Source: Patescibacteria group bacterium
GTDB lineage: Bacteria > Patescibacteriota > Minisyncoccia > Moranbacterales > UBA2206
Assembly: GCA_022711335.1 (NCBI GenBank)
Contig: JAKLFF010000004.1
Location: 10,592 to 74,591 of the forward strand
Direction: 5' to 3'
DNA: 64,000 nt
A program made the translations under genes and the position numbers. Each line of letters starts with the position of its first letter. Position 1 is the stretch's first letter. The notes beneath the pieces are model-generated. The model was given only the letters and a program-made list of their open reading frames with translations. It was not told the origin of the DNA and made no database searches. Shown in pieces: positions 2,343-60,267 of this stretch.

Positions 2343-2941
2343 TATTTTATAATCTTGTCCACTATGCCATATTTTTTAGCTTCTTCCGCGCTCATAAAAT
2401 AATCCCGCTCCGCGTCTTTTTCTATTTTTGAAATCGGCTGCTTCGTATGCTTGGATAAAATTTCATTGAGCCTTTTTTTGACGCTAAGGATATGCTTCGC
2501 ATGGATATCAATATCGGTCGCTTGCCCTTGCGTTCCTCCCATTACCTGATGAATAAGCACTTCGCTGTTAGGAAGAATTATTCTTTTCCCTTCTTTCCCG
2601 GAAGCCAGAAGCAGTGTTGCCGCCGAAGCCGCAAGGCCCACGCAAATTGTAGAAACATCTGCTTTGACATGCTGCATCGTATCATAAATAGCAAGCGCTG
2701 AGGTCACTTGACCGCCTGGAGAATTAATATAGAGCTTGATGTCTTCCTTGCTGCTCTGAGAATCCAGAAAAAGAAGCTGGGCGATAATACTGTTGGCGGA
2801 AATATCATCAACGGGACCGCCCAAAAAAATTATTCTCTCCTTGAGAAGCCTTGAATAAATATCGTAAGCCCGCTCGCCATAGCTGGTCTTTTCTATCACT
2901 GTGGGTATCAGATATTGATTTATAATATTATTTTTATTCAT
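2342..2941 (-). CDS. clpP: ATP-dependent Clp protease proteolytic subunit
   Basis: [24 protein letters not shown]...; the track ORF begins at a TTG (2977); the ATG giving [15 protein letters not shown] (2939-2941) is the more plausible start. Confidence 0.9.
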
Positions 2942-3031
2942 AATTTCGAATTTAAAACGATTTTTAATTTTTGGCAACTTGAATTTTAATATTGTTTAGA
3001 ATCTAAGATTTAGCACTTAGAATTTATTAAA

Positions 3032-4327
3032 TTAAAGCCTCTCCAGGAACTCAAATACTTTTTCATTCTCAAGAGTTCCCTTGCAATAGCTATACAATCT
3101 TTCCATATCCAAATTCTTCTCCATATTCCTAACATCTTTATAATACTTGAGGGTTTTGTTGATTTCTTCTTCTATTTCTTTTGTATCAGCTTTTATGTCT
3201 TCGTCTTTGGCGATTTGCCCAAGCGCCAGGGCGGAAATTATTCTTTTTTCCGCTTGAGGTTTCCAATCAGTTTTGAGATCCTCCTTGCTTTTTTTAATAT
3301 TAGCAAGATACTGGTCTATTGTCATTCCCATCGGGCTAATTTGATGTTCAAATTCATGAAGCATTTTTTCCGTTTCCTCCTTGACGAGAATTTCAGGAAG
3401 ATCCGTTTTTGAATTTTGGACGATACTGTCTAAAAATTCAGTTCTTCTGTTTTCTTTCATTTTATGCTCTTTCTCGTGTTCAAGCCCTTCTTTCAGGCTT
3501 TTTCGAAGCATTTCAAGATTTTCAAATTTGCCAAGGGATTTTGCAAAATCATTATTGATTTCCGGGGTCTGCCTTTCCTGAACTAAATTCATCTTGACCT
3601 TAAATGTAGCCGCTTTTCCAGCCAAATCTTTCTTGTGATAATCAGCCGGAAATGACAATTCGAATTCCTTTTCTTCCCCCTCTTTCATTCCGATTATATT
3701 TTCTTCAAATCCGGGAATAAAAACACCTTTTCCAATTATCAGCGGATGTTTCTCGCTCTTTCCATTTTCAATCGGCGCCCCGCCGACAGACACTTCAAAA
3801 TCAATTTCCACGCTGTCTCCTTTTTTCGCTTCGCGTCTGACTGTTACCAGCTTCACCCGGCTCGCGGCCAGTTTTTCAACTTCAAGATCAACATCCTTTT
3901 CATCAACCTGGCTTTCTTTTTTAGAAAATTCCTCGTTGATTTTTTTTATCTCTTTTTTGTAGGCTGGCTCTATTTTTATTTCCGGCATAATTGATACCGT
4001 TGCCTTATATCTAAGATCTTTTCCCTCTTCCATTTCCACTATTTCCACTTTAGGGCTGCCGATGACTTCCAATTTTTTTTTCTCCGCCAGCTGGCGGACA
4101 TATTCAACATAGCTCTTTCTGACCGCTTTTTCTGAAGCCTCATTGAGAATGGCTGCTTTTCCTATTTTTTGCTCTACGATATTTCTCGGCGCTTTTCCAG
4201 GACGAAAACCAGGAATTTTTATCTCTCCTGATAATTCTTCCGCCGCCTGGTCCAGATATTTTTTCCAATCCTCCCAAGACACCGCCAATTCAAATTCAAT
4301 TTGAGATTTAGGTAGTTTTTTGATCAT
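3032..4327 (-). CDS. tig: Trigger factor
   Basis: 431 aa; N-terminal ...GFRPGKAPRNIVEQK... ribosome-binding signature; the classic tig-clpP adjacency. Confidence 0.9.
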   Translation of the reverse strand: MIKKLPKSQIEFELAVSWEDWKKYLDQAAEELSGEIKIPGFRPGKAPRNIVEQKIGKAAILNEASEKAVRKSYVEYVRQLAEKKKLEVIGSPKVEIVEMEEGKDLRYKATVSIMPEIKIEPAYKKEIKKINEEFSKKESQVDEKDVDLEVEKLAASRVKLVTVRREAKKGDSVEIDFEVSVGGAPIENGKSEKHPLIIGKGVFIPGFEENIIGMKEGEEKEFELSFPADYHKKDLAGKAATFKVKMNLVQERQTPEINNDFAKSLGKFENLEMLRKSLKEGLEHEKEHKMKENRRTEFLDSIVQNSKTDLPEILVKEETEKMLHEFEHQISPMGMTIDQYLANIKKSKEDLKTDWKPQAEKRIISALALGQIAKDEDIKADTKEIEEEINKTLKYYKDVRNMEKNLDMERLYSYCKGTLENEKVFEFLERL

Positions 4328-10244: not shown

Positions 10245-10946
10245 TCAGAAAATCATGTTGGATCCCCGAAGAGCCGAATCAATGGCCTGGATTATTACAA
10301 ATCCGGAAAGCGCCACAATAACCCCAATGATAGAATATATCAAATTCTTCTTGGCTGTTTCCATCATTTTTTCATCCCCGGCCGCCGCGAAATATTGGAT
10401 TCCAGAAACCACGAAAGCTAAAATGGCCAGCATTCCAAATATCCCCAAAATCCACCCTAAAACATTAGCCAAAATCGCTCGGATGCCTCCCGAAGGGCTG
10501 GGCAAGCCTGTAGCTGGAATAGTCAATCCGCTTTTTGAGGTTGATGATGACTTGCCGCTGCTGGAGCTGGAAGAAGTAGAGTTTGTTCCTGATGATGTAT
10601 TGCTGCTTGAGCTTTCATCTGAACTTTCAACTGTATAGCATCCCATATATTGTTCTCCAAAAGACTCATATTGGCGGCAATGTCCGGATAAGCCGCTGCT
10701 ATCAGTGCAGGCATCCTCTTCATTTGCGCATCCGTCCTGTTTGATGACAGGCACATAGCATCCTATCCTTTCCTCACCGAAAGATTCATAAGCCCGGCAA
10801 TGGCCGACTTGGCCGTCTCTCGTGCAAGCGGTCTCTTCTGTCTGACATCCGTCTTCGCTCACAATTGCATATGCCGGAGAAATAAAAAACAGAGAGAGAA
10901 ATAAAAGCGGAAAAAATTGCATAAAAAATACTTTTTTGTTTTTCAT
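10245..10946 (-). CDS. TrbC/VirB2-type (T4SS pilin-like, PF18895-like) protein with a duplicated Cys-rich domain and Ser-rich linker
   Basis: Signal peptide; two about 35-aa Cys repeats (DGC..E.AC....G..GHCR.YESFGE...GCY); poly-Ser linker; C-terminal TM-[AAGDEK..TAKKNLIYSIIGVIVAL]-TM module. Confidence 0.65.
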   Translation of the reverse strand: MKNKKVFFMQFFPLLFLSLFFISPAYAIVSEDGCQTEETACTRDGQVGHCRAYESFGEERIGCYVPVIKQDGCANEEDACTDSSGLSGHCRQYESFGEQYMGCYTVESSDESSSSNTSSGTNSTSSSSSSGKSSSTSKSGLTIPATGLPSPSGGIRAILANVLGWILGIFGMLAILAFVVSGIQYFAAAGDEKMMETAKKNLIYSIIGVIVALSGFVIIQAIDSALRGSNMIF

Positions 10947-10950
10947 TGTT

Positions 10951-11373
10951 TTAAAAATAAAGGCCCGCGCTTAAGATCAAATAAACAGTTTTTATCAGAA
11001 CCACTCCGGAAAGGCCGACGATTATGCCAATAATTGAATAACTCATGGCGTTCTTGGCTCTTTTCATTTGATCATCGTCTCCAGCGCTAAGAAGATACAA
11101 TATTCCTGAAATTACAAATCCCAAAATTCCCAAAAATCCAAAAAGATAAAGTATCCATTGAAGAATGCCAACGACGATTCCAGTAACCGATCCTCCAGGC
11201 AATCCAAAATAGGAAAGATAACCTGGATTCCAGCCGGAAGTGGAATAATTGCCGCTGCCCGGAGCAAGATATCTCCATTCCCATTCAGCCGAAGAAACAA
11301 ATGGAACTAGAATAAGCGCCAAAGAAAAAAATACTGCAAATGCCCTAAAGCTTATTTTGTTTTTTATTTTCAT
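10951..11373 (-). CDS. TrbC/VirB2-type pilin-like protein
   Basis: Signal peptide then ...ILYLLSAGDDDQMKRAKNAMSYSIIGIIVGL...; paralog of the neighbouring genes. Confidence 0.65.
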   Translation of the reverse strand: MKIKNKISFRAFAVFFSLALILVPFVSSAEWEWRYLAPGSGNYSTSGWNPGYLSYFGLPGGSVTGIVVGILQWILYLFGFLGILGFVISGILYLLSAGDDDQMKRAKNAMSYSIIGIIVGLSGVVLIKTVYLILSAGLYF

Positions 11374-11412
11374 TTTTTAGTCCTTAATTTTTCTTTTTTT
11401 ATTATACCACAA

Positions 11413-11451
11413 ATAAAAAAAACGACCAGTTTTTTTCTGGCTCGTTTTTTT
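11413..11451. terminator. Bidirectional intrinsic terminator
   Basis: Arms CGACCAG and CTGGCTCG (one-base bulge), flanked by A8 on one side and T7 on the other. Confidence 0.6.
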
Positions 11452-11473
11452 GTTATTGAAAATATTTTTTGGT

Positions 11474-11836
11474 TTATAGCCTGTTCCCCGCGCTAAGAAG
11501 ATTGGCGGCAAAACGAAGAGCTACTACTCCGGCAATCGCGACAATTACTCCAATGATGGAATAGAGCATAGCGTTTTTGGCTTTCGTAATCCGATCGTCA
11601 TCTCCGGCTGCTGTCAAATAGAGAATTCCGGCAATCGCAAATCCGATTATTCCCAAAAATCCGACAATGTAGAGCAGCCATTGGGTAACGCTTATAATTA
11701 TCTCGGTTACTGATCCTTCCGGGACGCCTGTTCCAGCTGGAATTCCAAACTGCGCGCCTGCCGCCACTGGCAAAGAAAGGGCCAGAACAAAAGCAAATGA
11801 AACTATTGATTTAATTTTATTTTTCATAACTTGCAC
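11474..11836 (-). CDS. TrbC/VirB2-type pilin-like protein
   Basis: Signal peptide then ...ILYLTAAGDDDRITKAKNAMLYSIIGVIVAIAG... Confidence 0.65.
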   Translation of the reverse strand: MQVMKNKIKSIVSFAFVLALSLPVAAGAQFGIPAGTGVPEGSVTEIIISVTQWLLYIVGFLGIIGFAIAGILYLTAAGDDDRITKAKNAMLYSIIGVIVAIAGVVALRFAANLLSAGNRL

Positions 11837-11894
11837 CTCCCTTCTTTTTGACTGTTAAGAGATATTAACAGAAATTTTTATTTTTATTTTGTAT

Positions 11895-12671
11895 CTACTG
11901 CCCTGAAATTAAACTTGATATCTCATTAATAATGACCACTGCCGAAAGCGCTACAACAATTCCAATTATGGCATAAACAATAATTTTCTTTCCGGTTTCA
12001 ATTCTCTTTTCATCCCCATAAGCGGTGAGATACATTCCTCCGCCGACCACTAGGGATATTATAGCGATAATTCCGAAGATTGACAACAGAAGATTCAAAA
12101 TATTTATGCCAATTTGATAAAGAGTCGGCCCAGTAAGGCCCGCGGTATTCACCCCGCTTGAGCCTCCAAGGATATTTATGATTTCCGTGAGAAACGACGG
12201 CGCCGCAAGAACAATGGCCAAGCCGATAACCGCCCCGGTCCAGCAGAGCTTCGCCCGCGTTATCATCTTTTCGCTTCCGGCTGAAAGCATATAAAGGATT
12301 CCGCCGAGCACTATAAAAATGATGGCTACCACCGCAACGATACTTCGAAGGCTTGTCAGAAATTTATTCAAAAACTCGCTGACTGTCTTTATGCCAAGAG
12401 GATTGGGAAATTCTGCCGTAGCGCTGCTACCGCTTGCAGTGCTAGCAGCACCAGAACTTGAGCTACTTGATTTGCAATCAGAGGGACATGAACCATCTAT
12501 TATCGTTCCCGCACAATCATAAATCTGTTGGCTAGTTGTCGCATTGCTACATTGAGAACCTTCGGTAATAATACAGCATTTAGTATCAGCACTGGCAGTA
12601 TTAAATATAATTCCAAATAAAAAAACTAAACTACAAACAAAACTATATAACAATATTTTTTTATTTTTCAT
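11895..12671 (-). CDS. TrbC/VirB2-type pilin-like protein with two tandem pilin modules
   Basis: Signal peptide; Cys-rich N-terminus; Ser-rich linker; two copies of the TM-AGSEK/YGDEK-TM module. Confidence 0.6.
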   Translation of the reverse strand: MKNKKILLYSFVCSLVFLFGIIFNTASADTKCCIITEGSQCSNATTSQQIYDCAGTIIDGSCPSDCKSSSSSSGAASTASGSSATAEFPNPLGIKTVSEFLNKFLTSLRSIVAVVAIIFIVLGGILYMLSAGSEKMITRAKLCWTGAVIGLAIVLAAPSFLTEIINILGGSSGVNTAGLTGPTLYQIGINILNLLLSIFGIIAIISLVVGGGMYLTAYGDEKRIETGKKIIVYAIIGIVVALSAVVIINEISSLISGQ

Positions 12672-14082: not shown

Positions 14083-14652
14083 TTATTTTCCCAGCACCAA
14101 GCCATAATGGAAGTTGCTGGCTTCTATTTCCTTTACGATTTTTAATTTGTTTTTTTGGGCTATTTTAATCAGGTCTTTTTTGGAAATTTTATTTTTTCTG
14201 TCCGGACCGATAGGCAGATCTTTTTCTTCCCATTCAATGATGAGCATTTTTCCTTTTTTTCCGAGAATTCTCTCGGCTTCCAAAAGTATCCTATCTTTGC
14301 CGCTATTTTGAAAAAGCATATTAACCGCAACCACCCAATCGACACTCCCGTTTCTAAGGCCCGACCCTTTTTCTGCTTCAAGGTTGGCTTTCTTAGTCAT
14401 TATATTGGTAATTCCTTCTATTCTCGCGCGGCTTTCGATCACTTCTAGTTTTTCTCTGCGAACATCCAAAGCATACACAATTCCGTCAGGACATATTTTT
14501 TTGGCTATTGGAACGGCAAAATATCCCGTACCGCAACCGAAGTTGGCCACCTGCATTCCATTTTCAAAATCCAGGCTTTCTATTATCACTTCCGGTGCTA
14601 TAAATTTTGATCCGTATTCGATAGCCTTTGATAATTTTTTATTTTTGTCCAT
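14083..14652 (-). CDS. Class I SAM-dependent methyltransferase
   Basis: Motif I ANFGCGTGYFAVPIA. Confidence 0.65.
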   Translation of the reverse strand: MDKNKKLSKAIEYGSKFIAPEVIIESLDFENGMQVANFGCGTGYFAVPIAKKICPDGIVYALDVRREKLEVIESRARIEGITNIMTKKANLEAEKGSGLRNGSVDWVVAVNMLFQNSGKDRILLEAERILGKKGKMLIIEWEEKDLPIGPDRKNKISKKDLIKIAQKNKLKIVKEIEASNFHYGLVLGK

Positions 14653-14698
14653 CGCGTTCTTATTTTACAATAAAAAGCAAAAATCGACAAACCTTTTC

Positions 14699-14788
14699 TG
14701 GCGGAAGTGGGAGGATTCGAACCTCCGGTACCGTTTCCAGTACAACAGTTTTCGAGACTGCCCGATTAAACCACTCTCGCACACTTCC
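14699..14788 (-). tRNA. tRNA-Ser(CGA)
   Basis: 90 nt; long variable arm; anticodon loop CUCGAAA; T-arm GGAGGTTCGAATCCTCC; CCA encoded. Confidence 0.8.
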
Positions 14789-14885
14789 GTATTCTAAATC
14801 TATACAATTTTACGCTTCCAATCAATAGCGCGCCTTTTTAGAAATATCTGATATAATAAAACCAGCTAAAATATAAGATAAAAAA

Positions 14886-15527
14886 ATGGGGCTGCTTTTC
14901 AAAAGAAATCTGGGAGGAAAAAACATTTCGTTTAAAAAACGAGTGGCTGATAGCGCAATTTCCAACAGCTATATAAGGGAAACAATAAAAAAATCGAGAT
15001 CAAAATTCGCTCTGGGAAAATCCGGAGCCGCAAAAAGAACTGAAAGAGATATTATAAAAGCTCAAGCAGGCGGACTGGATCTGAAAGAAACTCACGAAAT
15101 AATCCAAAAAAGAATCGCTGCTGGAGATATCACAAAAGAAAAAGCTAAAAAGCTGGCTATCGAATGGGGACTTACTGAAGAAAGGTTTCATAAATTCAAA
15201 GATATATCTGAATGCAAAAATATCCAGAAAAGGCAGGAATGGATGGAAAAAGCGCAAAAAAAATCAAATACTCAAAAAAATGGGCCGGCCAATGCCCAAA
15301 ACAGCCCGCCAAAAGGATTTTCAGCCAGGACAAATTTAAATAAATCAGCAGTTTTTCCAGCGAATATTGATTCGCAGCCGGCGCTAAAAATTGCCAGCCA
15401 AAGAAAACTTGCTAATCTGGAAACACAAAATAACGAAGAGCCGGTAAAACCAAAAAATATATGGGAAATTATAAACAAGCAAAAACACCGCGATGCTTTC
15501 CCGGAGGATAGCCAGAAAACCGCTTGA
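14886..15527 (+). CDS. Hypothetical K-rich protein
   Basis: 213 aa; no motif recognised. Confidence 0.4.
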   Translation: MGLLFKRNLGGKNISFKKRVADSAISNSYIRETIKKSRSKFALGKSGAAKRTERDIIKAQAGGLDLKETHEIIQKRIAAGDITKEKAKKLAIEWGLTEERFHKFKDISECKNIQKRQEWMEKAQKKSNTQKNGPANAQNSPPKGFSARTNLNKSAVFPANIDSQPALKIASQRKLANLETQNNEEPVKPKNIWEIINKQKHRDAFPEDSQKTA

Positions 15528-15626
15528 ATCTTTATTTCATGGCAATGCATTAGCGCGGGGTTTACACAAACCAATATAAATGATAGCCTGAAATAAGCAC
15601 TTTTCGGGAACAATTATTCAACGCTT

Positions 15627-16127
15627 ATGCCAAATTTTCAACAATTTATTCAAAACAACTGGCTTATTCTTCTGCAAGTTTTTCTTTTTCTTCTTTTTTT
15701 TATTTTAATCTGGAATATCGTTCTGACCCTTAAAATGAAAAAAATTAAGAAAAATATCCAGGAAATGTTTTCTGGGAACAAAGTCACTAATCTTGAAGAA
15801 CTTTTGCTTGGACAAGCTAAGAATATCCAGATGTTAGACAAAGACATCCAGGAACTCTATGACATTTCCAACCAAATCAATTCCTTGGCCGGAAAGGGGC
15901 TTCACAAAGTAGGAATGGTAAGATTCAATCCCTTCAAAGATGTCGGCGGCGATCAGAGTTTCGCCATCGCGCTTCTCAATGGAAAAGGAAACGGCTTGAC
16001 GATAAGCTCGCTCTATTCTCGAGAAGGAACTCGGATTTATTCCAAATCCATAACATCCGGAGAATCAGAAAAGCATCCGCTTACCGAAGAAGAAAAAGAA
16101 GCTATTAAAATCGCGGAAAAATCATAA
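15627..16127 (+). CDS. DUF4446-like protein with an N-terminal TM
   Basis: ...[30 protein letters not shown]... pattern. Confidence 0.5.
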
Positions 16128-27169: not shown

Positions 27170-27702
27170 CACATTTAAAAAAGAGGCGACGGTGTCCGGC
27201 GGCGTTTCAGCGCCAAAGGAAGAATTGGAAAAACCCAATCGCAAGGAGAGGAGAAATGGGCGTTATTGTGTCTTGTTCCAAATGGAAAATTTATAATAAT
27301 ACAGTCACCGTCCCGGCCACCTGCAACCGCAACACCGGCTGAGCGACCCGTGGGCGCCCGCCAGACTGACGATGTCTGGCTAGTCAGCCCTGGGAAATGG
27401 CCGTAGTGTAACCGCCGTCCGCGCCCCCTCCGAGCAAGCCTCGGACCAGTCCACAAGGGACATTGGGCGCGGCCGGCACACACAGCATTTGCCCGCCATC
27501 GTCTGCGCGGGCAGAAAGGACAAATATGCGCCGCATACCCTTTTCAGGGTTGAGAACCAACGTCTCAGCGACGCAACCGGATGTCTGCAATCCAGACTCT
27601 AGTCCCGTGAATAGGCCCCGCTCCACGGAATTTACGCCACTGGAGCCGCCACGAATTTAGGACGTATTAGGGACGCAGTCTGATTGCAGACGTCACCCAG
27701 CA
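27170..27702 (+). ncRNA. Candidate structured noncoding RNA of unknown class (about 450-570 nt, about 60% GC)
   Basis: No ORF over 102 aa in any frame; many local hairpins; bracketed by a consensus promoter and a strong intrinsic terminator; GC content far above the flanking DNA. Confidence 0.45.
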
Positions 27703-35477: not shown

Positions 35478-37334
35478 ATGAATTATATTTACTGTTTTTG
35501 GAGTAAACTCAAAATAAAACCAGATATTTGGTTTTTTTATGGATTTTTATTAACTTTTACTTTTAGTATCCGGAAAGTACTGTTTTACTTTCCAATTAAA
35601 GGAACTTTTAATGAATATACCGGAATATACGTTTATATTTCCGATATTTTTTTATTTTTCACGATGTTATCGTGGATTATACTCATATTATCCAATAAAA
35701 ACATTTATTTGTCAAACTGTAAGTTGTGGATAACTCAACTTATACACAGTTTATATTGTAAAATAGCCCTAGAATTAAAGTTTATTTTTTTTAATCGTTC
35801 AATTAACCTACCAAATAATTATTATGAAAATAGTTCAACTGATAAAGTCTCTAAATGTTCTACACATGCCTTATTACTTTCAAATGTTTCGTCTCTTGAA
35901 AAATGTTCCACGTGGAACATTACATGGAACAAACATGGTATATTCATCATTATTCCATTAGTCATTGTAATATGGTCATTTATATCAATCATATGGTCGT
36001 CTAATCAAACCATAGCTGTTTTTAGATCTATCAAACTTTTTGAGTATTTTTTGTTATATTCATATATTGCATTTAGACTTGTTCCATTTATTAAATCAAA
36101 AGTATGTTCCACATTTGCTTCACAAATTGTTCCACGTGGAACAATTTTTATGGGATGGAATAGTATAATGGTGATTATTATAATAATTGGCTTATTTCAG
36201 TCAATAATTGGAATCATCCACTTCATTGATCAACACTCAATTGGCCTTTTTTGGCTTAAAGAAAGCATAATTTCACCTGATATCGCTGGCGTAGCCAAAA
36301 TTGTTATAAATGGCCAGAAATATATCAGGGCCTATGGCCTATTTCCTCATCCCAATATTCTGGGTGGATTTTTGTTGTTTTCAATTATCATTACACTCAT
36401 GTATTACAGAATGTTCCATGCTTGCCGTGTAACATCTAATTGTTCTACGCCTGCCCCGTTTAATGTTCCACGTGGAACAATTCTCAATTCCCTTATCCTC
36501 GTCCAATCCATCGCATTTTTTTTAACATTTTCTAAATCAGCCATTCTGGGACTGACAATTTCCCTGTTTTATATGTATATTGCTCCTCATCTGGTTAGTG
36601 CGACTAAAATGTTCCACCCCATAAAACTTCAAAATGTTCCACATGGAACAATTGGAAGTAATGGGGCAGGCGTGGAACATTTCAAATCCCTAGACAGTAA
36701 AATGTCTTTAAATAATATAAAGCATGATCGTAATTTAAGAATTGCGTTATTAATATTTCTCATAATTATTCTGACTTTCTATCTATCATGGACAACCGTT
36801 GACTCAATGATCCGAAACTCAATTGAACAGCGTATAATCTATCTCAATGTTTCACGTGGAACAATATTGGCCAATCCAGTTCTTGGCATTGGAATGGGCC
36901 AATTCGTTCCCAATATGCAAAAATATACCGCTAATCTTGAACTATGGCAATTTCAGCCTGTTCATAACGTATTTTTACTAATTTGGTCAGAGTTGGGGAT
37001 AGTTGGATTAGGCTTTTTTACATATTGGATGTACAAAATGTTCCACATGAAACACAAAACCCTCTCTCCTTTACAAGGAGAGGGCTGGGATGAGGTAAAT
37101 AAGGTTACAAGCGAAACAAATGATAGGGAAGTAGCTAATTCTGATAAATCTATATTACAAAATAAAAGCAATTCTTTGTCAAGTGGTATAACCCTTCGGT
37201 ATTTTAAGGCAATTCTTCTTGGATTCATTTTTATAATGCTTTTTGACCACTATTTTTGGGATATCCAGCAGGGGAATATCATGCTTTGGATGACGATGGG
37301 ATTTATTGCTGGATTGAATAAAAATATTACATAA
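35478..37334 (+). CDS. O-antigen ligase (Wzy_C/WaaL-like) family membrane protein carrying multiple in-frame palindrome insertions
   Basis: Polytopic; ...YGLFPHPNILGG..., ...QPVHNVFLLIWSELGIVGL...; frame intact across 618 codons. Confidence 0.55.
   Translation: MNYIYCFWSKLKIKPDIWFFYGFLLTFTFSIRKVLFYFPIKGTFNEYTGIYVYISDIFLFFTMLSWIILILSNKNIYLSNCKLWITQLIHSLYCKIALELKFIFFNRSINLPNNYYENSSTDKVSKCSTHALLLSNVSSLEKCSTWNITWNKHGIFIIIPLVIVIWSFISIIWSSNQTIAVFRSIKLFEYFLLYSYIAFRLVPFIKSKVCSTFASQIVPRGTIFMGWNSIMVIIIIIGLFQSIIGIIHFIDQHSIGLFWLKESIISPDIAGVAKIVINGQKYIRAYGLFPHPNILGGFLLFSIIITLMYYRMFHACRVTSNCSTPAPFNVPRGTILNSLILVQSIAFFLTFSKSAILGLTISLFYMYIAPHLVSATKMFHPIKLQNVPHGTIGSNGAGVEHFKSLDSKMSLNNIKHDRNLRIALLIFLIIILTFYLSWTTVDSMIRNSIEQRIIYLNVSRGTILANPVLGIGMGQFVPNMQKYTANLELWQFQPVHNVFLLIWSELGIVGLGFFTYWMYKMFHMKHKTLSPLQGEGWDEVNKVTSETNDREVANSDKSILQNKSNSLSSGITLRYFKAILLGFIFIMLFDHYFWDIQQGNIMLWMTMGFIAGLNKNIT
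35903..37060. repeat. Array of at least 7 copies of the palindrome (A)ATGTTCCACGTGGAACA(TT), plus half-sites and an associated GCCTGCCCC submotif
   Basis: Perfect copies at 35903..35920, 36125..36146, 36465..36480; near-perfect copies at 36631..36652, 36846..36865, 37036..37056; half-sites at 36104, 36411, 36607, 36671. Confidence 0.8.
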
Positions 37335-37569
37335 AAATATTTTCTAAATTGTTTCCATCTTTTTCCCAGTTAATTGGATTTTTAAAAATATATTCGCGAA
37401 TTTTATTCAATTCAATTTCATTTCGAATGATACGATCATAAAAAGACCGTTGCCAAATATTTGTAATACAGGAAATATTTTTTGATTTCATTAATTGAAT
37501 ATATTCTACGGCTGATTTGGATTTAAACGTTTGGATTATTTTTGATAATAATCCAATTTGATTAGAATT

Positions 37570-37651
37570 TTGTAGGGACAGACCTTATGTCTGTCCTGAA
37601 TTTTTTATTTGTATTTTTTTATTTTGGGCGGACACAAGGTCCGCCCCTACA
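37570..37651. repeat. REPIN/BIME-like 82-bp element, copy L (TIR TTGTAGGG/CCCTACAA, two 8-bp-stem hairpins)
   Basis: GGACAGAC-CTTAT-GTCTGTCC and GGGCGGAC-ACAAG-GTCCGCCC. Confidence 0.6.
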
Positions 37652-37905
37652 TTTCCGATAATCTCTATGATCAAATGAACATGGTTTGGCATTATTATGT
37701 TTTCATCTAAAAATACACTTGGAGAATAATTTGAAACATTATTTAAATTTTTTAAAATAATCTTTCCCACATCATTCAAAACCATTTCTGTATTTTTAAT
37801 TTCACCAAAAAATTCTTCACGATTTTTTGTACAGATGGTAATAAAATACATTCCTTGCTGTGAATAATCATAACTATTGAGGCGATTTAATTTACGGTTT
37901 TTCAT
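37585..37905 (-). pseudogene. Truncated REP-associated tyrosine transposase (RAYT / IS200-like TnpA), N-terminal half only
   Basis: YDYSQQGMYFITICTKNREEFFGEI...MPNHVHLIIEI, then the reading frame runs into the REPIN copy; the catalytic C-terminal Tyr region is missing. Confidence 0.6.
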
Positions 37906-38682: not shown

Positions 38683-38764
38683 TTGTAGGGACAGACCTTG
38701 TGTCTGTCCTGAATTTTTTATTTGTATTTTTTTATTTCGGGCGAACACAAGGTTCGCCCCTACA
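38683..38764. repeat. REPIN/BIME-like 82-bp element, copy R (about 93% identical to copy L, same orientation)
   Basis: Same TIRs and hairpins as copy L. Confidence 0.6.
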
Positions 38765-40297: not shown

Positions 40298-42742
40298 TTA
40301 CAATACCGTAATCGCGCTGACTTTGTCACCAGCCTGTGGCCTCATAACTCTTACGCCTTGTGTCGCCCGGCCGAGAACGGAAACTTCTTTGAGAGAAATG
40401 CGGATAATCTGGCCTTTTTCAGATGTAAGGATTACGTCTTCTTCAATCTGATCCAAATTAACCACTTGCGCGCCGATCAGTTTTCCGGTTTTGGCAGTAA
40501 CCGATGCCGTCTTTATCCCGCTGCCTCCCCGATTTTGAACTTTGTATGATTTCAGATCAGATCTTTTTCCATATCCGTTTTCCGAAATCACCAAAAGTTG
40601 ATTGCCTTTCTGATTTTTGAGGACCACATCCATTCCAACTACCTTATCTTCGCTTTTTAGCTTGATTCCACGCACTCCAGCCGCGGCGCGTCCCATTGGA
40701 CGGACATCTGATTCTTTGAAATGAATAGCTTGTCCGGCGGCAGTCGTCACAACCACTTCATCCGATCCGGTTGTCGCCTCCACCCAGCGGAGCGCATCGC
40801 CCTTTTCCAGTTTGATCGCAAGCAATCCAGAACGCCTGACATTATCAAATTCATCGAAGGTGGTTTTCTTGACTGTCCCAGTTTCTGTCACCATGAGAAG
40901 ATATTTATAATTATCATCTTTTCCAAAAGCAACGATCGCCGTTACGGATTCTTCCGAAGAAAGGGAAAGGAAATTAACAATTGATTGTCCTTTGGCCACT
41001 CGGGAAGATTCCGGAATTTCATAAGCCTTGGTTTGGAAAACTTTTCCGGAGTTCGTAAAGAAGAGCATATTGTCATGTGTCATTACGCCAAGAAGTTTTT
41101 GAATTTCATCACCTTCTTTGGTTGTCGCACCGATCACGCCCTTTCCGCCACGCTTCTGGACTTTGTAAACTCCCGGGTTCATTCTTTTTATGTAGCCTTC
41201 TTTAGTGATAGTTATGATAGCTTCCTCATTCGGAACCAAGTCTTCCTGCTTGAATTCTCCGATTCCGCCTTTCACCACTTTGGTTTTTCGCTCATCGCCA
41301 TATTTTTCTTTGACTCGAGCCAATTCATCTTTCACAATTGCCAGAATTTTCTTTTCTGATTTCAAAATGGCTTCCAATTCCGCAATCAGCTTCAGTTTTT
41401 CGGCCAATTCGTCTTCAATCTTCTTTCGTTCCAATCCTGCAAGTGTCTGCAGCCGCATTTCGAGAATTGCCGTTGATTGTCGATCGGAAAGCTTGAATTT
41501 TTTCATCAAATTCGCATGCGCTTCTTCTTTTGTCGGAGATTTCCGGATTGCATCAATCACGGCATCGATATTATCGAGTGCTTTTTTAAGGCCTTCCAAT
41601 ATATGCGCCCGGTCTTTGGCTTTTTCCAAATCATATTTAGTCCGCCTGGTGATAACAATTTTTCGGTGTTCGATATATTCTTCCAAAATATCCTTGAGAT
41701 TGAGCACTCTCGGCTCGATTCCATTGACCAGCGCCAGCATATTCACCCCGAAGTTCTTCTGAAGATCCGTCATAGAATAAAGCTTGTTGAGAACTTTTTG
41801 CGGATAGGCGTCTTTTTTAAGATCAATGACAATCCGCACTCCTTCCTTGTCAGACTCATCTCGGATATCTCGGATCCCCACAATTTTTCCATCTCGAACC
41901 AAATCGGCCATTTTCTCAATAAGCGTCGCTTTATTGGTTGCATAAGTCATTTCGCTGACCACAATTTGAAAAGCACCGGCTTTGCTTTCCACTATATCAA
42001 CTTTGGCACGAGTAAGAATCTTTCCACGACCGGTTCGATATGCTTCCAAAACATCTTTTTTATTGTAAATTATCCCGCCCGTCGGAAAATCTGGACCTTT
42101 GACAAATTCTGCCAGATCTTCAATGGTAGCTTCTGGGTTATCAATAAGACATGAAATTCCATCGGCAATTTCATTCAAATTATGCGGAGGAATGTTCGTT
42201 GCCATTCCAACCGCAATTCCCATTGAACCATTGAGAAGCAGCTGAGGAAGCGCTGCCGGAAGAACAGTCGGTTCTTTGTGCTGTCCGTCAAAATTAGGGA
42301 CAAAATCAACCGTGTTTTTTTCAATGTCAATAAGCATTTCCTCGGCAATGGCAGAAAGTTTGGCTTCCGTATAACGATAAGCGGCCGCCGAGTCACCGTC
42401 CATCGAGCCGAAATTTCCCTGGCCGCGAACAAGAGGATAGCGAAGAGAAAAATCCTGGGCCATGCGCACCATAGAATCATAAACAGCGCTGTCTCCGTGC
42501 GGATGAAACTTTCCCAGCACTTCTCCGACTACTGTAGCTGATTTTCTGAATTTTGCGTTAGCCCGAAGACCGGTGTTCCACATGGAATAGAGGATTCTTC
42601 TGTGAACTGGCTTAAGGCCATCCCTGACATCCGGAAGAGCGCGCGCGACAATGACACTCATCGCATAATCAAGATAGCTTTGCGATATTTCTTCGGTAAT
42701 TTCGCGATTCTTTATATTTTGTACTTGTAGTTCTTTAGTCAT
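40298..42742 (-). CDS. gyrA: DNA gyrase subunit A
   Basis: ...[23 protein letters not shown]..., 814 aa. Confidence 0.9.
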
Positions 42743-55098: not shown

Positions 55099-55173
55099 TG
55101 GTGGGACCAGCTGGATTCGAACCAGCGACCAAGCGGTTATGAGCCGCCTGCTCTACCACTGAGCTATGGTCCC
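55099..55173 (-). tRNA. tRNA-Met(CAT) (elongator or tRNA-Ile2)
   Basis: GGGACCATAGCTCAGTGGTAGAGC...; anticodon loop CUCAUAA; CCA encoded. Confidence 0.75.
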
Positions 55174-55443
55174 CAAATATTTTCTTAATTTTTTTCTTAA
55201 ATCCTCTCGACCTTTTGTTGTTTTATAATATTTTTCATTTCTTTCTGCGTCCTCTTTCTCAGAAAAACATTCATAATAAATCAGCTTGACCGGCAACCTC
55301 TTGCTAGTTGATTTAACCTTTCCTTCCTTGTGTTGATTATATCTTAATTTCAGATTACTCATAAAACCTATATAAAATTTGTTGTCTTTTAAACTTAGCA
55401 ATATGTAAACAAAAAACATACTTTTTACGATTATGCCCAGCAA
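55153..55443 (-). CDS. Small GIY-YIG (URI-domain, UPF0213/YhbQ-like) nuclease family protein (copy 2)
   Basis: FFVYILLSLKDNKFYIGFMSNLKLRYNQHKEG...; the last 7 codons (KYLGTIAQW, then TAG) are encoded by the 5' part of tRNA-Met; the real start is probably the internal Met (MFFVYIL). Confidence 0.65.
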   Translation of the reverse strand: MLGIIVKSMFFVYILLSLKDNKFYIGFMSNLKLRYNQHKEGKVKSTSKRLPVKLIYYECFSEKEDAERNEKYYKTTKGREDLRKKLRKYLGTIAQW

Positions 55444-55445
55444 AC

Positions 55446-55470
55446 TTGCTGGGCTACCGCTGAGCTATGG
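55446..55470 (-). other. Duplicated 5' fragment of tRNA-Met (acceptor and D-arm), followed by the hairpin CCCAGCAA...TTGCTGGG
   Basis: CGGGACCATAGCTCAGCGGTAG matches the first 21 nt of tRNA-Met with one substitution. Confidence 0.5.
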
Positions 55471-55475
55471 TCCCG

Positions 55476-55549
55476 TGGGCTCGTCCAGACTCGAACTGGA
55501 GACCTCGTCGATGTCAACGACGCACTCTAACCAACTGAGCTACGAGCCC
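55476..55549 (-). tRNA. tRNA-Val(GAC)
   Basis: GGGCTCGTAGCTCAGTTGGTTAGAG...; anticodon loop UUGACAU. Confidence 0.8.
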
Positions 55550-55591
55550 GGATAACATAATAATCTTATTTCAAAAAAAGAGTTTGGTCAA

Positions 55592-56620
55592 TTACTTCTT
55601 CCTTCTCCTCCCATGAAACGCCTGATGCACTTCTTTGAGCTGTTTATTAGTTATGTGGGTATACACCTGCGTGGTTGTGATTGAAGAATGGCCAAGCATG
55701 GCTTGCACACTTCTGATATCAGCCCCATTGATTAACAAGTCCGTCGCGAAAGAATGGCGAAGCGTGTGCGGATGGACGTTTTTTACAATTCCAGCTTTCA
55801 CCGCGTAGTATTTGACGATTCTTTGAATTGATCTCGGTGTTAGTCTTAAATTATCTGAATCTCTTTTCTTTTTTTCATCTTTGGCAGAAAATTTTTCCAA
55901 TCCTTTCACGTCCCTCACAAACAAGGCCGGATCAATGTCTGTTCTTTTGTCTAAATATTGCCGGATGGCCCTTTTGGCACTGTCAGAAATGAAAACCACC
56001 CGGATTTTTTCTCCTTTTCCTCGGACAGATAGCTCTCCGCTTCCAAGATCCAGCTTGTCGCGGTTAATTCCTACGAGTTCCGAAACCCGCAGCCCGGCAG
56101 AAAAGAGGAGTTCAAGAATTGCCTGATCGCGAAATGCTTTAAAACTCGCTCCAGAAGCAGCAGTAATAATCCTTTCCACTTCATCGGATTCTAAAAATTC
56201 CACCTCCCTTTCTGGGGTTTTGCCAATTTCTATTTTCTCTGCCTGAAGCGTCTTGATATCCCGCTTAGCCAAATACTTTAAAAAACTTCTGAGAGCAATG
56301 ATGTAATAGCTTTGCGTGGCTTTTTTTAGCCCTTTTTCATTTTTGTACTTATAGCGATTAAGAAATATCCGGTAGTTTCTAATCAAACCGTCTGTAATAT
56401 CAGAAGATTTATCGATTTTCGCCCAGCCCAAAAAATTGGAAAGATAGCGATCATAATTTTCAATCGTTTTTTGCGACCGTCCGCGCTCTATTTCCAAATA
56501 TTCTAAAAACTGAGTTTTTAATTCTCCTATGCCCATAAATTTTCTTTTGCAACACTCTAAATTATACTGTTTATAATCGTTTTTGACAAAAAGAGCAGTT
56601 TTGTGTATACTGGACACCAC
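55592..56620 (-). CDS. Tyrosine recombinase XerC/XerD-like
   Basis: ...HTLRHSFATDLLINGADIRSVQAMLGHSSITTTQVYTH...; the N-terminal 28 aa are probably not translated (start near MGIGELKTQFLEYLE). Confidence 0.8.
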   Translation of the reverse strand: MVSSIHKTALFVKNDYKQYNLECCKRKFMGIGELKTQFLEYLEIERGRSQKTIENYDRYLSNFLGWAKIDKSSDITDGLIRNYRIFLNRYKYKNEKGLKKATQSYYIIALRSFLKYLAKRDIKTLQAEKIEIGKTPEREVEFLESDEVERIITAASGASFKAFRDQAILELLFSAGLRVSELVGINRDKLDLGSGELSVRGKGEKIRVVFISDSAKRAIRQYLDKRTDIDPALFVRDVKGLEKFSAKDEKKKRDSDNLRLTPRSIQRIVKYYAVKAGIVKNVHPHTLRHSFATDLLINGADIRSVQAMLGHSSITTTQVYTHITNKQLKEVHQAFHGRRRKK

Positions 56621-58047: not shown

Positions 58048-60267
58048 TTAAATTTTTTTGAGTGGCGCTATGTTAGCCGATAATTTTTTCAGTCCGACTT
58101 TCGAAAAAGCTATTGTTATTACATCACCCTGCGTTGCCACTATCATTCCATCGCCGAAAACCGTATGCCTTACTCGATCACCATCCTTAAATTTAATATT
58201 TTGTATTTCAAAATTATTTTCCTTTTTAAAATTGGAAATTTTATCATTAAAATTTGATTGTAAACTGGTAATTGGTAATTGGTAATTCCGCACAAGGTGC
58301 GACGGTATATCATCCAGAAAACGGGACGGTGGATTGATTTGGGTCGACCCAAAAATATTTCTTTCTGATGTAAAGAGCAGATATACTTTTTCCTTGGCCC
58401 TGGTTATACCGACATACATAAGCCTTCTCTCTTCTTCCATTTCACTGTGATCAAGCATGCTCCTGGAATGAGGCAGAATCCCTTCTTCAAGCCCGGCAAT
58501 GAAAACCACCCGAAACTCAAGCCCTTTGGCGCTGTGGAGCGTCATAAGATGCACAGATTCGATGTTTTGATCGATATTATCCGTGTCGGATACTAAAGCC
58601 ACTTCTTCTAAAAACAAATTTAATCCCTCTTCTCCTTCATAATCTTCGTATTTTTTAGCGACGGTCAGCAATTCACGGACATTTTCTTGGCGCATCTCGC
58701 CCTCTTCAGTTCCATCCAGCAGATATTTTTCATAACCGGATTCAACGAAAACTTTTTGGATAAAGTCAGTGATTAGCAGTTTCTTTTTCAATTCTGCCAT
58801 TCGCACTATAAATTCTGAGAATTTAGATATGGCATCCAATTTTGCATCTCGTATTTTATATTTGGTATTTTTTATTTGGTCATTTAGAATTGGAGTTTTT
58901 TTGGAAATTGGTAATTGGAAATTGGAAATTGCGAGACCGGTTTCAATCAAGTCTTTGTTGTTCTTCCTGGCAAGTTGAGTCCACTTACCTAGCGTAATAT
59001 CACCTATTCCTCGTTTCGGCTCGTTTATTATCCTTTCTAAGCTGACTTCATCGCTAAAATTATTAATCAATCTTAAATACGCAACCACGTCCTTTACCTC
59101 TTTTCTCTGATAAAATTTTATCCCGCCAATGATACGGTAGGGAATAGAATTTCTTAGCATCACTTCCTCAATAATTCTAGATTGCGCGTTGGTTCTGTAG
59201 AGAATAACAAAATCGCCATAGGCATGCTTAGTTTTTTTCATCTTTTGAATTTCCTCTGCAATAAATTCAGCTTCATTTTTTTCATTATCAGCTTCATAGG
59301 AAACCAACAGATGCCCGCCTGAATTTTCAGTCCATATTTTTTTGTCTTTGCGGTTTACGTTTTTTGAAATAACTCCATAGGCCGCATCCAAAATGTTCTG
59401 CGTGGAACGATAATTTTGCTCAAGTTTTATCACCTTTGCTTTAGGATAGTCCTTTTCAAAATCCAAGATATTTTGAATGTTAGCTCCCCGCCAAGAATAA
59501 ATCCCCTGCCAATCATCCCCCACGACACAGATATTTCCATGCTTTTGGCTCAATAGTTTTATAAGCAGATACTGAGCATGATTGGTATCTTGATATTCGT
59601 CCACCATGATGTAGCGAAAAATATTCTGATATTTTTTCAGAACTTCTGGAAATCGTTGAAAGACCTTGGCTGTGTACATCAAAATGTCATCAAAATCCAG
59701 CGCGTTTTGCTCTTTTAGCTTTTTCTGATAATTTGTATAAATTTTAGAAACCACTTCCTCGAAATATCCGCCAATGCCTTTTTTAAATTCCTCGGCATCA
59801 ATCAATTCATTTTTGGCCTTGGATATAGCGCCTAGAATCGCTTTCGGCCGAAATTGCTCCACATCGATTTGCATCTCCTTCATTGTCCTTTTCATGAGAG
59901 CCAATTGATCCTGATCGTCAAAAATATTAAAACTGGTTTTGAATCCAATTTTATCAATCTCCCGGCGTAAAATTTTCACACAGATTGAATGGAATGTTCC
60001 CATAACAGGGAAGTTGGCATCTCCTCCATTGCTTTCAAGCAAACTTTTTATCCTCTCTTTCATCTCCTGCGCCGCCTTATTGGTAAAAGTCACCGCTAAA
60101 ATATTTCCCGGCCTCACTCTTTTTTCGCAGATGAGATAGGCTACCCGGTGCGTCAGCGCCCTGGTTTTCCCCGATCCCGCCCCAGCAATAATCAAAACCG
60201 GCCCTTCGGTCGTAGTCACAGCTTCTTTTTGACTATTATTAAGCTTTTCTAAAATGTTGTCTTTCAT
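58048..60267 (-). CDS. pcrA: ATP-dependent DNA helicase PcrA/UvrD with two in-frame repeat insertions
   Basis: [18 protein letters not shown]...; insertions [22 protein letters not shown]... (58190..58285) and [18 protein letters not shown]... (58860..58935) are encoded by AATTGGTAATTGG-type tandem units. Confidence 0.85.

Follow-up and report, generated by a model that had tools for sequence, protein, structure and literature searches.

A candidate chromosomal centromere array read in three frames within an O-antigen-ligase-like gene of Moranbacteria-type Parcubacteria

In bacterial ParABS systems, dimers of ParB (Spo0J) load on 16-bp parS sites and spread from there to adjacent DNA in a CTP-dependent manner (PMC7022226). 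The general parS consensus is TGTTNCACGTGAAACA. The 16-mer TGTTCCACGTGGAACA is exactly the sequence of parS2 and parS3 of Pseudomonas aeruginosa and of parS in P. putida, while Myxococcus xanthus carries 22 clustered TGTTCCACGTGGAACG sites (PMC4368675 Table 1; PMC7022226 Table 1). In P. aeruginosa, 9 of 10 parS sites lie inside coding sequence (PMC4368675). Other known chromosomal sets comprise 10 sites in Corynebacterium glutamicum and 10 in Bacillus subtilis. Both parS arrays and single parS sites within genes are already known. Here, we analyzed 64,000 nucleotides from a member of the Patescibacteria (GenBank assembly GCA_022711335.1, contig JAKLFF010000004.1, positions 10,592 to 74,591; hereafter the window), in which TGTTCCACGTGGAACA is repeated inside a single open reading frame (ORF) at 35478 to 37334. 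We assign a probability of roughly 85% to the reading that these sites are parS, putatively maintained for binding by ParB, and that the 1.2-kb array is the chromosomal centromere cluster of the organism.

The ORF, on the plus strand, encodes a 618-amino-acid polytopic membrane protein that contains the Pfam Wzy_C domain and has the WaaL-like fold of O-antigen ligases, with the palindrome array carried in frame. A first-pass annotation, made from the sequence alone, had described palindromes inserted in frame into an O-antigen-ligase-like gene, and the host ORF is indeed a genuine protein of this kind. Because its DNA is 100% identical across five independent assemblies, the array is not an assembly artifact. 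The names attached to homologs of the protein assign the genome to a Candidatus Moranbacteria type. Within the AT-rich window (~40% GC), the gene contains six full copies of TGTTCCACGTGGAACA, along with split and half sites. Three copies are perfect (35904, 36128, and 36464), two have one mismatch (36635 and 36848), and one has two mismatches (37039). All six are within one mismatch of TGTTNCACGTGNAACA, and as 16-bp palindromes that fit tGTTNCACGTGAAACa or a validated variant, the three perfect copies match P. aeruginosa parS2/parS3 exactly. When up to three mismatches are allowed, 0.10 matches are expected by chance in the whole window, and the nine observed were reached in 0 of 100 shuffles. 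The repetition and the extended perfect palindromes were as first described, and the peptides quoted for the inserts were correct on translation. The claim of at least seven insertions stands only when split and half sites are counted, since there are six full-length sites.

The first site, parS-1 (35904 to 35919), is perfect, is read in frame 0 as K-C-S-T-W-N, and falls in the disordered loop 105-148 of the structure model. An extra right half-site, ACATGGAACAA (35922 to 35932; family D3), begins 3 bp past it. An extra left half-site, ATGTTCCAC (36104 to 36112; family D1), precedes parS-2 by 15 bp. The latter (36128 to 36143) is also perfect, is read in frame 2 as I-V-P-R-G-T in loop 208-224, where the predicted local distance difference test (pLDDT) score is <50, and extends to a perfect 22-bp palindrome, AATTGTTCCACGTGGAACAATT, at 36125 to 36146. 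A composite unit on the plus strand (36438 to 36482; family I9) runs from a half-site, TGTTCTAC, through a GCCTGCCCC spacer to the perfect parS-3 (36464 to 36479), which is read in frame 2 as N-V-P-R-G-T in coil 314-331, immediately ahead of helix 332. A similar unit of family I9 lies in the opposite orientation on the minus strand (36609 to 36680). There, the halves of one parS (36609 to 36617 and 36672 to 36680) are split by a 54-bp palindromic insert that carries parS-4 (36635 to 36650, with a CACATG center) and GGGGCAGGCG. This inverted unit has a DNA fold of -20.2 kcal/mol (z = -5.1) and maps to loop 375-410 (pLDDT <50). The submotif CGCCTGCCCC, which had been noticed in both orientations, occurs exactly at 36448 (+) and 36663 (-).

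The two remaining sites lie toward the end of the gene. At 36848 to 36863, parS-5 (TGTTTCACGTGGAACA) is read in frame 2 as L-N-V-S-R-G-T-I at the end of helix 418-465; its mismatch, in the TGTTTCAC arm, is a T at degenerate position 5, which is a permitted base. The degenerate parS-6 (TGTTCCACATGAAACA; 37039 to 37054) is read in frame 1 as K-M-F-H-M-K-H at the end of helix 498-522. Further half-sites are located at 35855, 35922, 36104, 36411/36427, 36441, 36609, and 36672. In all, the sites of the gene occupy six to seven inter-helix regions, in low-pLDDT loops or at helix ends of the model. Outside the gene, the other 62 kb of the window contain no palindrome site at ≤1 mismatch. Weaker matches number three, where a single distant half-site had been reported and 0.1 was expected for the window: one with two mismatches in gyrA (42574) and one with three mismatches at each of 27274 to 27289 and 59394 to 59409, the last within a UvrD/PcrA gene. 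These latter two could be coincidental, or they could be weak half-site contacts for ParB. We rejected the gyrA match (42574 to 42589) as a parS site: the sequence TGTTCCACATGGAATA encodes the conserved GyrA motif YSMWN and is a coding coincidence. It is the same in four of the five organisms compared below, and the fifth (L132) has synonymous changes.

The resemblance to parS was tested independently by gene context and by comparison with published sites. For the former, we scanned the 20-mer AWTGTTCCACGTGGAACAWT in ~185,000 reference genomes (596 Gb). It was found in at least 120 genome stretches, compared to ~2 expected by chance according to our own arithmetic for 596 Gb. The matches listed come from Bacteroidota, Acidobacteriota, Nitrospirota, Verrucomicrobiota, Planctomycetota, Firmicutes, Proteobacteria, Bdellovibrionota, and Patescibacteria. 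We then clustered every ORF located at most 2.5 kb from the 20-mer, with no answer presupposed, and ran the largest clusters against Pfam. Among the matches listed, the most frequent neighboring families were GidA/MnmG (54 loci), ParA (30), ParB_N with HTH_ParB (30), GidB/RsmG (25), YbeY (21), and MnmE (14), and these include the classic origin-proximal par/gid neighborhood. In metagenomes, ParB was encoded in the same stretch at 34 of 120 loci with dense pairs of sites. We also built a logo from 32 sites in five organisms, namely, that of the window and those of four related loci (L126, L127, L132, and L133), with host proteins that are 38 to 48% identical to the query. Eleven of the 16 positions were invariant; variation was restricted to position 5 and its mirror, position 12, which correspond to the known degenerate N, and to the central CpG. 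Because of the par/gid gene context, the identity to published sequences, and the match of the logo, the palindrome is classified here as a predicted parS-type site of pan-bacterial distribution and not as a lineage-specific selfish element. The earlier fallback idea that densely packed sites serve a dimeric DNA-binding protein would, on this predicted identity, be essentially correct.

A palindrome that recurs within one protein family could reflect selection on the encoded peptides themselves. Two of the peptides, L-N-V-S-R-G-T-I and Y-K-M-F-H, do keep fixed positions in the family: at parS-5, V458 and S459 are invariant and T462 is conserved at ≥90% (20 homologs), and the position of parS-6 (YKMFH...) is semi-conserved. 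However, AATGTTCCACGTGGAACATT translates in its three frames to MFHVEH(F), NVPRGT, and CSTWN, three unrelated peptides, and the window protein itself reads the palindrome in three ways, as K-C-S-T-W-N, (I/N)-V-P-R-G-T, and K-M-F-H. In an alignment with 19 homologs (47 to 62% identity), the three peptides were spread over variable segments of nearly all sequences. An exhaustive search for the family (E ≤ 1e-30) yielded 277 clusters at 50% identity. At least one strict signature peptide was present in 118 of 120 homolog clusters (median, 6; maximum, 13), and 63 of the 120 used all three frames. The best 150 of the 277 family representatives contained 781 signature peptides, compared to 0.05 in shuffled controls, and the 74 perfect sites in 10 genes were split 15/18/41 among the frames. 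This use of all three frames identifies the palindrome as a feature of the DNA, not a protein repeat. What is conserved is the DNA palindrome and no single peptide, both within one protein and across the 150 representatives, so that a protein-level repeat is already refuted by three-frame usage and is barely tenable as an explanation. The possibility raised at the outset that orthologs might carry the peptides without the palindromic DNA did not materialize, as the two occur together.

The sites are also confined to this one gene. Across the five organisms, 32 sites within one mismatch of TGTTNCACGTGNAACA lie inside the homologous gene, and none occurs in ~142 kb of flanking DNA, including intergenic regions. 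A truncated homolog in two GTDB genomes, L071 (Moraniibacteriota UBA11098) and L077 (Parcubacteria), has at least 10 sites in each, and at four metagenome loci all sites again fall in the homologous gene (7 in L198, 8 in L223, 11 in L222, and 11 in L244). Homologs range from 450 to 924 amino acids, and their loop lengths and site numbers differ widely.

Relatives reveal how such arrays grow. In L222, a module of ~130 bp (parS, 41 bp, TTATCCACA, 44 bp, parS) occurs three times with ~99% identity, in frame, in three different loops with unrelated flanks. In L132, another module is present three times, and each copy contains three parS sites in three different frames together with a conserved spacer. 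These palindrome-bounded modules of ~110 to 130 bp, like the composite units of the window at 36438 to 36482 and 36609 to 36680, are repeated palindromic units carried in frame, and the arrays turn over and expand via copy-and-paste of parS-bounded segments. The copying would most simply reflect recombination or template switching at identical palindromes. We consider this more likely than transposition because copies turn up only at places that already have parS, an accumulation for which recombination at identical palindromes would also account.

Copy-and-paste growth is equally what a selfish miniature mobile element would produce. Such an element could resemble Rickettsia palindromic elements (RPEs), miniature inverted-repeat transposable elements (MITEs), or repetitive extragenic palindromic (REP) sequences, with a palindrome that is merely parS-like, inserts in frame, and lacks centromere function. 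The nearly identical modules in different loops and the nested and split palindromes of the window are compatible with this explanation, and a neighboring Y1 transposase of the REP-associated tyrosine transposase (RAYT) type might act on the hairpins. Directly downstream of the array lies a RAYT/IS200-like Y1 transposase gene (37335 to 37905, minus strand) with the HUH motif NHVHLI and the tyrosine motif WQRSFYDRIIR, and the equivalent position in the P0003 organism is held by a gene with a faint Y1_Tnp match. The gene of the window, however, is itself disrupted: a stop codon lies inside an in-frame doublet of ~79 bp (37572 to 37650) made of GTAG-headed, GC-rich hairpins (REPIN-like), and with this insert removed the gene scores 77 bits, where the cutoff is 80. 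The GTAG doublet recurs at 38685 to 38763, upstream of a TrmB-like gene. The arrangement resembles a small local REP/RAYT system within a genome of the candidate phyla radiation (CPR), with REP doublets of its own that differ from the parS palindromes. Furthermore, no gene of this kind is called beside the arrays of L126, L127, L132, and L133. Dispersal is typical of RPEs, REPs, and MITEs, whereas the flanks here are empty of sites; two sites keep conserved positions across the whole family; and the sequence is that of a validated parS associated with parAB across phyla. We therefore regard a selfish element as distinctly unlikely and retain the interpretation of the array as parS.

The gene neighborhood of the array is conserved. 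In the shared order, a gene for NMO or PolyA polymerase is followed by the Wzy_C gene, a TrmB-like gene, gyrA, and a Lactamase_B gene, and then by a gene for orotidine monophosphate decarboxylase or S1, TilS, FtsH, and a Xer-like integrase. In the window, gyrA (40298 to 42742, minus strand) is 3 kb from the array, with synteny kept. Sites directly beside gyrA are also found in three unrelated low-GC lineages (L209, L074, and L016; GC, 27 to 29%). In L209, eight sites in ~800 bp (2419 to 3199) begin 9 bp past gyrA in apparently noncoding DNA, and Kerfeldbacteria L033 has four perfect parS sites (140 to 1524) beside NUDIX and TrmB-like genes and no Wzy_C host. Neither of these dense arrays lies in DNA with an ORF of ≥120 amino acids. 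Because other low-GC lineages hold their arrays outside ORFs, the in-gene arrangement is specific to this Wzy_C protein family, and the chromosomal position of the centromere seems to be older than its capture by the gene. A centromere adjoining gyrA may be widespread.

The same neighborhood bears on whether the array serves a different DNA-binding protein. A TrmB-family gene adjoins the parS cluster in the window and in L071, L126, L127, L132, and L133, and even in L033 without the Wzy_C host, and no ParB was found locally; an operator array for such a winged-helix regulator could be envisaged. Yet TrmB-like genes are multicopy, with two in the window, so that adjacency is weak evidence, and the sites follow the ParB consensus base by base, the known degenerate position included. 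A second form of this idea, which the first-pass annotation had also offered, is that the core CACGTG is a restriction-modification target. There are six CACGTG in the window, four of them in the array, compared to 8.9 expected, and the hexamer is neither avoided nor enriched elsewhere; the window showed no gene for a restriction enzyme or DNA methylase. An operator array or a restriction-modification target is very unlikely in our view.

Finally, identical palindromes in exposed loops of a surface-related membrane protein could be recombination sites for programmed diversification, as in shufflons or phase variation. They could allow inversion, deletion, and duplication, the homologs vary in loop length and site number, and a tyrosine recombinase gene is present at 55592 to 56620. 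Against this, the identity of the gene in five independent samples reveals no population variability, inversion between sites would disrupt the ORF, and the recombinase is 19 kb away and XerC/D-type in appearance. Since parS identity accounts for the sequence by itself, we consider programmed diversification highly improbable.

In addition to parS, the host gene contains DnaA boxes. An inverted pair at 35725 to 35748 (TGTGGATAA, perfect, and TTATACACA) lies inside the ORF and encodes L-W-I-T...L-I-H-S; TGTGGATAA is the sole perfect DnaA box in the window. Across loci, there were eight perfect boxes in 15.7 kb of host genes, compared to two in 170 kb of flanks (~40-fold enrichment; Poisson P ~3e-11), where the three copies in L222/L244 represent one duplicated event, leaving at least three independent occurrences. 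Beyond the window, perfect boxes are found at 10314 in L126, at 10248 in L127, at 1531 and 1557 in L198, and at gene positions 562, 1306, and 1906 in L222. The box encodes L-W-I-(T/S) in four of four cases (the window, L126, L127, and L198), each time with codons that preserve it (Leu xTG and Ile ATA), and in L126 and L198 it has a shifted position in the gene (314 versus 248). In L222/L244 the box is midway between paired parS sites, forming a parS-DnaA box-parS module. The boxes may mark oriC or a DnaA-titration locus, or they may mark nothing. Chromosomal parS sites are expected in the origin-proximal ~20% of the chromosome. The embedded boxes hint at proximity to the origin, which is suggestive only. 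The cumulative GC skew decreases at a steady rate over the first ~36 kb, then more slowly as far as 44 kb, and is flat thereafter. Near 44 kb, the predominant gene orientation changes from minus to plus. Together, these changes near 36 to 44 kb weakly suggest a replication-related boundary but fall short of a clean origin signature.

If the array is a centromere, the organism should encode a ParB. In the core gene set of Parcubacteria, COG1475, SMC, and DnaA are present in 13, 14, and 15 of 17 genomes, respectively (PMC4508563 Suppl. Table 1), and COG1475 is the ParB COG (PMC6015842). From these class-level data, we infer that a cognate ParB is present in this organism. Several observations weigh against the centromere interpretation. 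Searches of the window together with 10 kb to its left and 17 kb beyond its right end (~91 kb), and of ~370 kb of CPR loci, found neither a ParB nor a ParA gene. COG1475 also includes ParB-like proteins without a role in partition, and the 17 genomes include no known Moranbacterium. The region examined contains no dnaA or dnaN, and the GC skew only alters its slope near 36 to 44 kb, without a clean minimum. Lastly, as noted above, a small mobile element would likewise yield copy-and-paste modules. Elsewhere in the window, at 14083 to 16127, a SAM-methyltransferase gene, a tRNA-Ser gene, a very basic 213-amino-acid ORF (14886 to 15527), and a DUF4446 gene occur together. DUF4446 often adjoins parB in Firmicutes; the 213-amino-acid ORF had no family match and no similarity to ParB.

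Under the centromere interpretation, ParB would occupy each site of the array and then spread along adjacent DNA in a CTP-dependent manner, and the resulting partition complex would mark the origin-proximal domain for segregation and SMC loading. The whole parS cluster would be embedded, in frame, at positions of one WaaL-fold gene that encode loops and helix ends free of structural constraint. What would make this feasible is the CC/GG variant of parS, which lacks stop codons in all frames and so can encode C-S-T-W-N, V-P-R-G-T, or M-F-H-V-E-H. Selection at the DNA level would retain the sites while selection at the protein level would hold the frame open, and in this manner the host gene would have carried the array across Moranbacteria-type Parcubacteria. 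A bolder proposal is that the host is a dedicated "centromere gene" rather than a chance landing site, in which cis elements for replication and segregation, namely parS and, in several lineages, interleaved DnaA boxes, are selected to reside in the coding DNA of one kind of gene. In one variant, coupled transcription, translation, and membrane insertion (transertion) of an actively expressed membrane protein would tether ParB-bound, origin-proximal DNA to the membrane, which would serve minimal cells that lack dedicated polar anchors as an anchoring or segregation device. In another, the gene might overlap a functional part of the replication origin. We regard such a dedicated role as unlikely.

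Other genes in the region were recorded in passing. The window contains 15 tRNA genes in several clusters, and an XerC/D-like tyrosine recombinase gene stands beside tRNA-Met and tRNA-Val genes (55099 to 56620); in L132 the same gene follows FtsH. Several T4SS-pilin/TrbC-like genes lie at 10245 to 12671, and a type IV secretion cluster with PrgI-, TraC-, and VirB4-like genes lies to the right of the window (L254, 18918 to 20852; ~80 kb in window coordinates).

If correct, the assignment would locate the chromosomal centromere for a large uncultured CPR group, the Moranbacteria-type Parcubacteria, and provide a simple sequence marker for metagenome-assembled genomes. It would also account for the odd recurrent peptides (MFHVEHF, NVPRGT, and CSTWN) and the large length variation of proteins annotated as the O-antigen ligase family, which would be useful for their annotation and modeling. 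The locus would be a natural example of a protein-binding DNA site kept within coding sequence in three frames, where selection on the DNA determines what the protein loops look like in sequence, and of centromere array expansion by copying of parS-bounded modules. The interleaved DnaA boxes raise the question of whether signals for replication initiation and segregation share one gene, and a further question is whether expression of a membrane protein from the centromere has a mechanical role. In the searchable literature, we found no description of the combination seen here, in which the loops of one conserved WaaL-fold gene carry a whole centromere array in three frames throughout a CPR lineage, with in-frame module expansion and interleaved DnaA boxes.

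Several described systems share features with this locus. RPEs are repeated palindromic segments of ~100 to 150 bp that lie in frame in coding genes and add peptides at tolerant positions. The resemblance to RPEs proposed in the first-pass annotation holds in part: because growth occurs by in-frame copy-and-paste of parS-bounded modules, the arrays resemble RPEs, and the modules of L222 and L132 act like them. In contrast, RPEs are scattered over many unrelated genes as well as intergenic regions, and no cis function is known for them, whereas the copies here are confined to one gene and are built of what is probably a functional, pan-bacterial centromere motif. REP/REPIN-RAYT systems also consist of short hairpin-forming palindromes, and the RAYT-like gene and two genuine GTAG doublets lie immediately downstream; the parS palindromes differ in that they lack the GTAG head, are AT-flanked and intragenic, and are unrelated to the local REP doublets. 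DnaA-box clusters (DBCs) outside oriC, such as the DBCs of B. subtilis and datA/DARS of Escherichia coli, resemble the locus in the enrichment of perfect TTATCCACA at a non-dnaA locus and its retention at the DNA level, yet the boxes here are intragenic and interleaved with parS. The closest counterparts are chromosomal parS clusters, which share the 16-bp palindrome and its presence in several copies in one region (parS1-4 of P. aeruginosa and the 22-site cluster of M. xanthus), and the degeneracy of the array at position 5 and the center is like that of known weaker parS sites. Unlike in those clusters, the entire array lies within one ORF (six sites here and up to 13 signature peptides in relatives), where all three frames are used and the loops of a single conserved non-par gene hold the sites throughout the lineage; the array does not lie beside parAB, it grows by in-frame copying of modules, and it includes embedded DnaA boxes.

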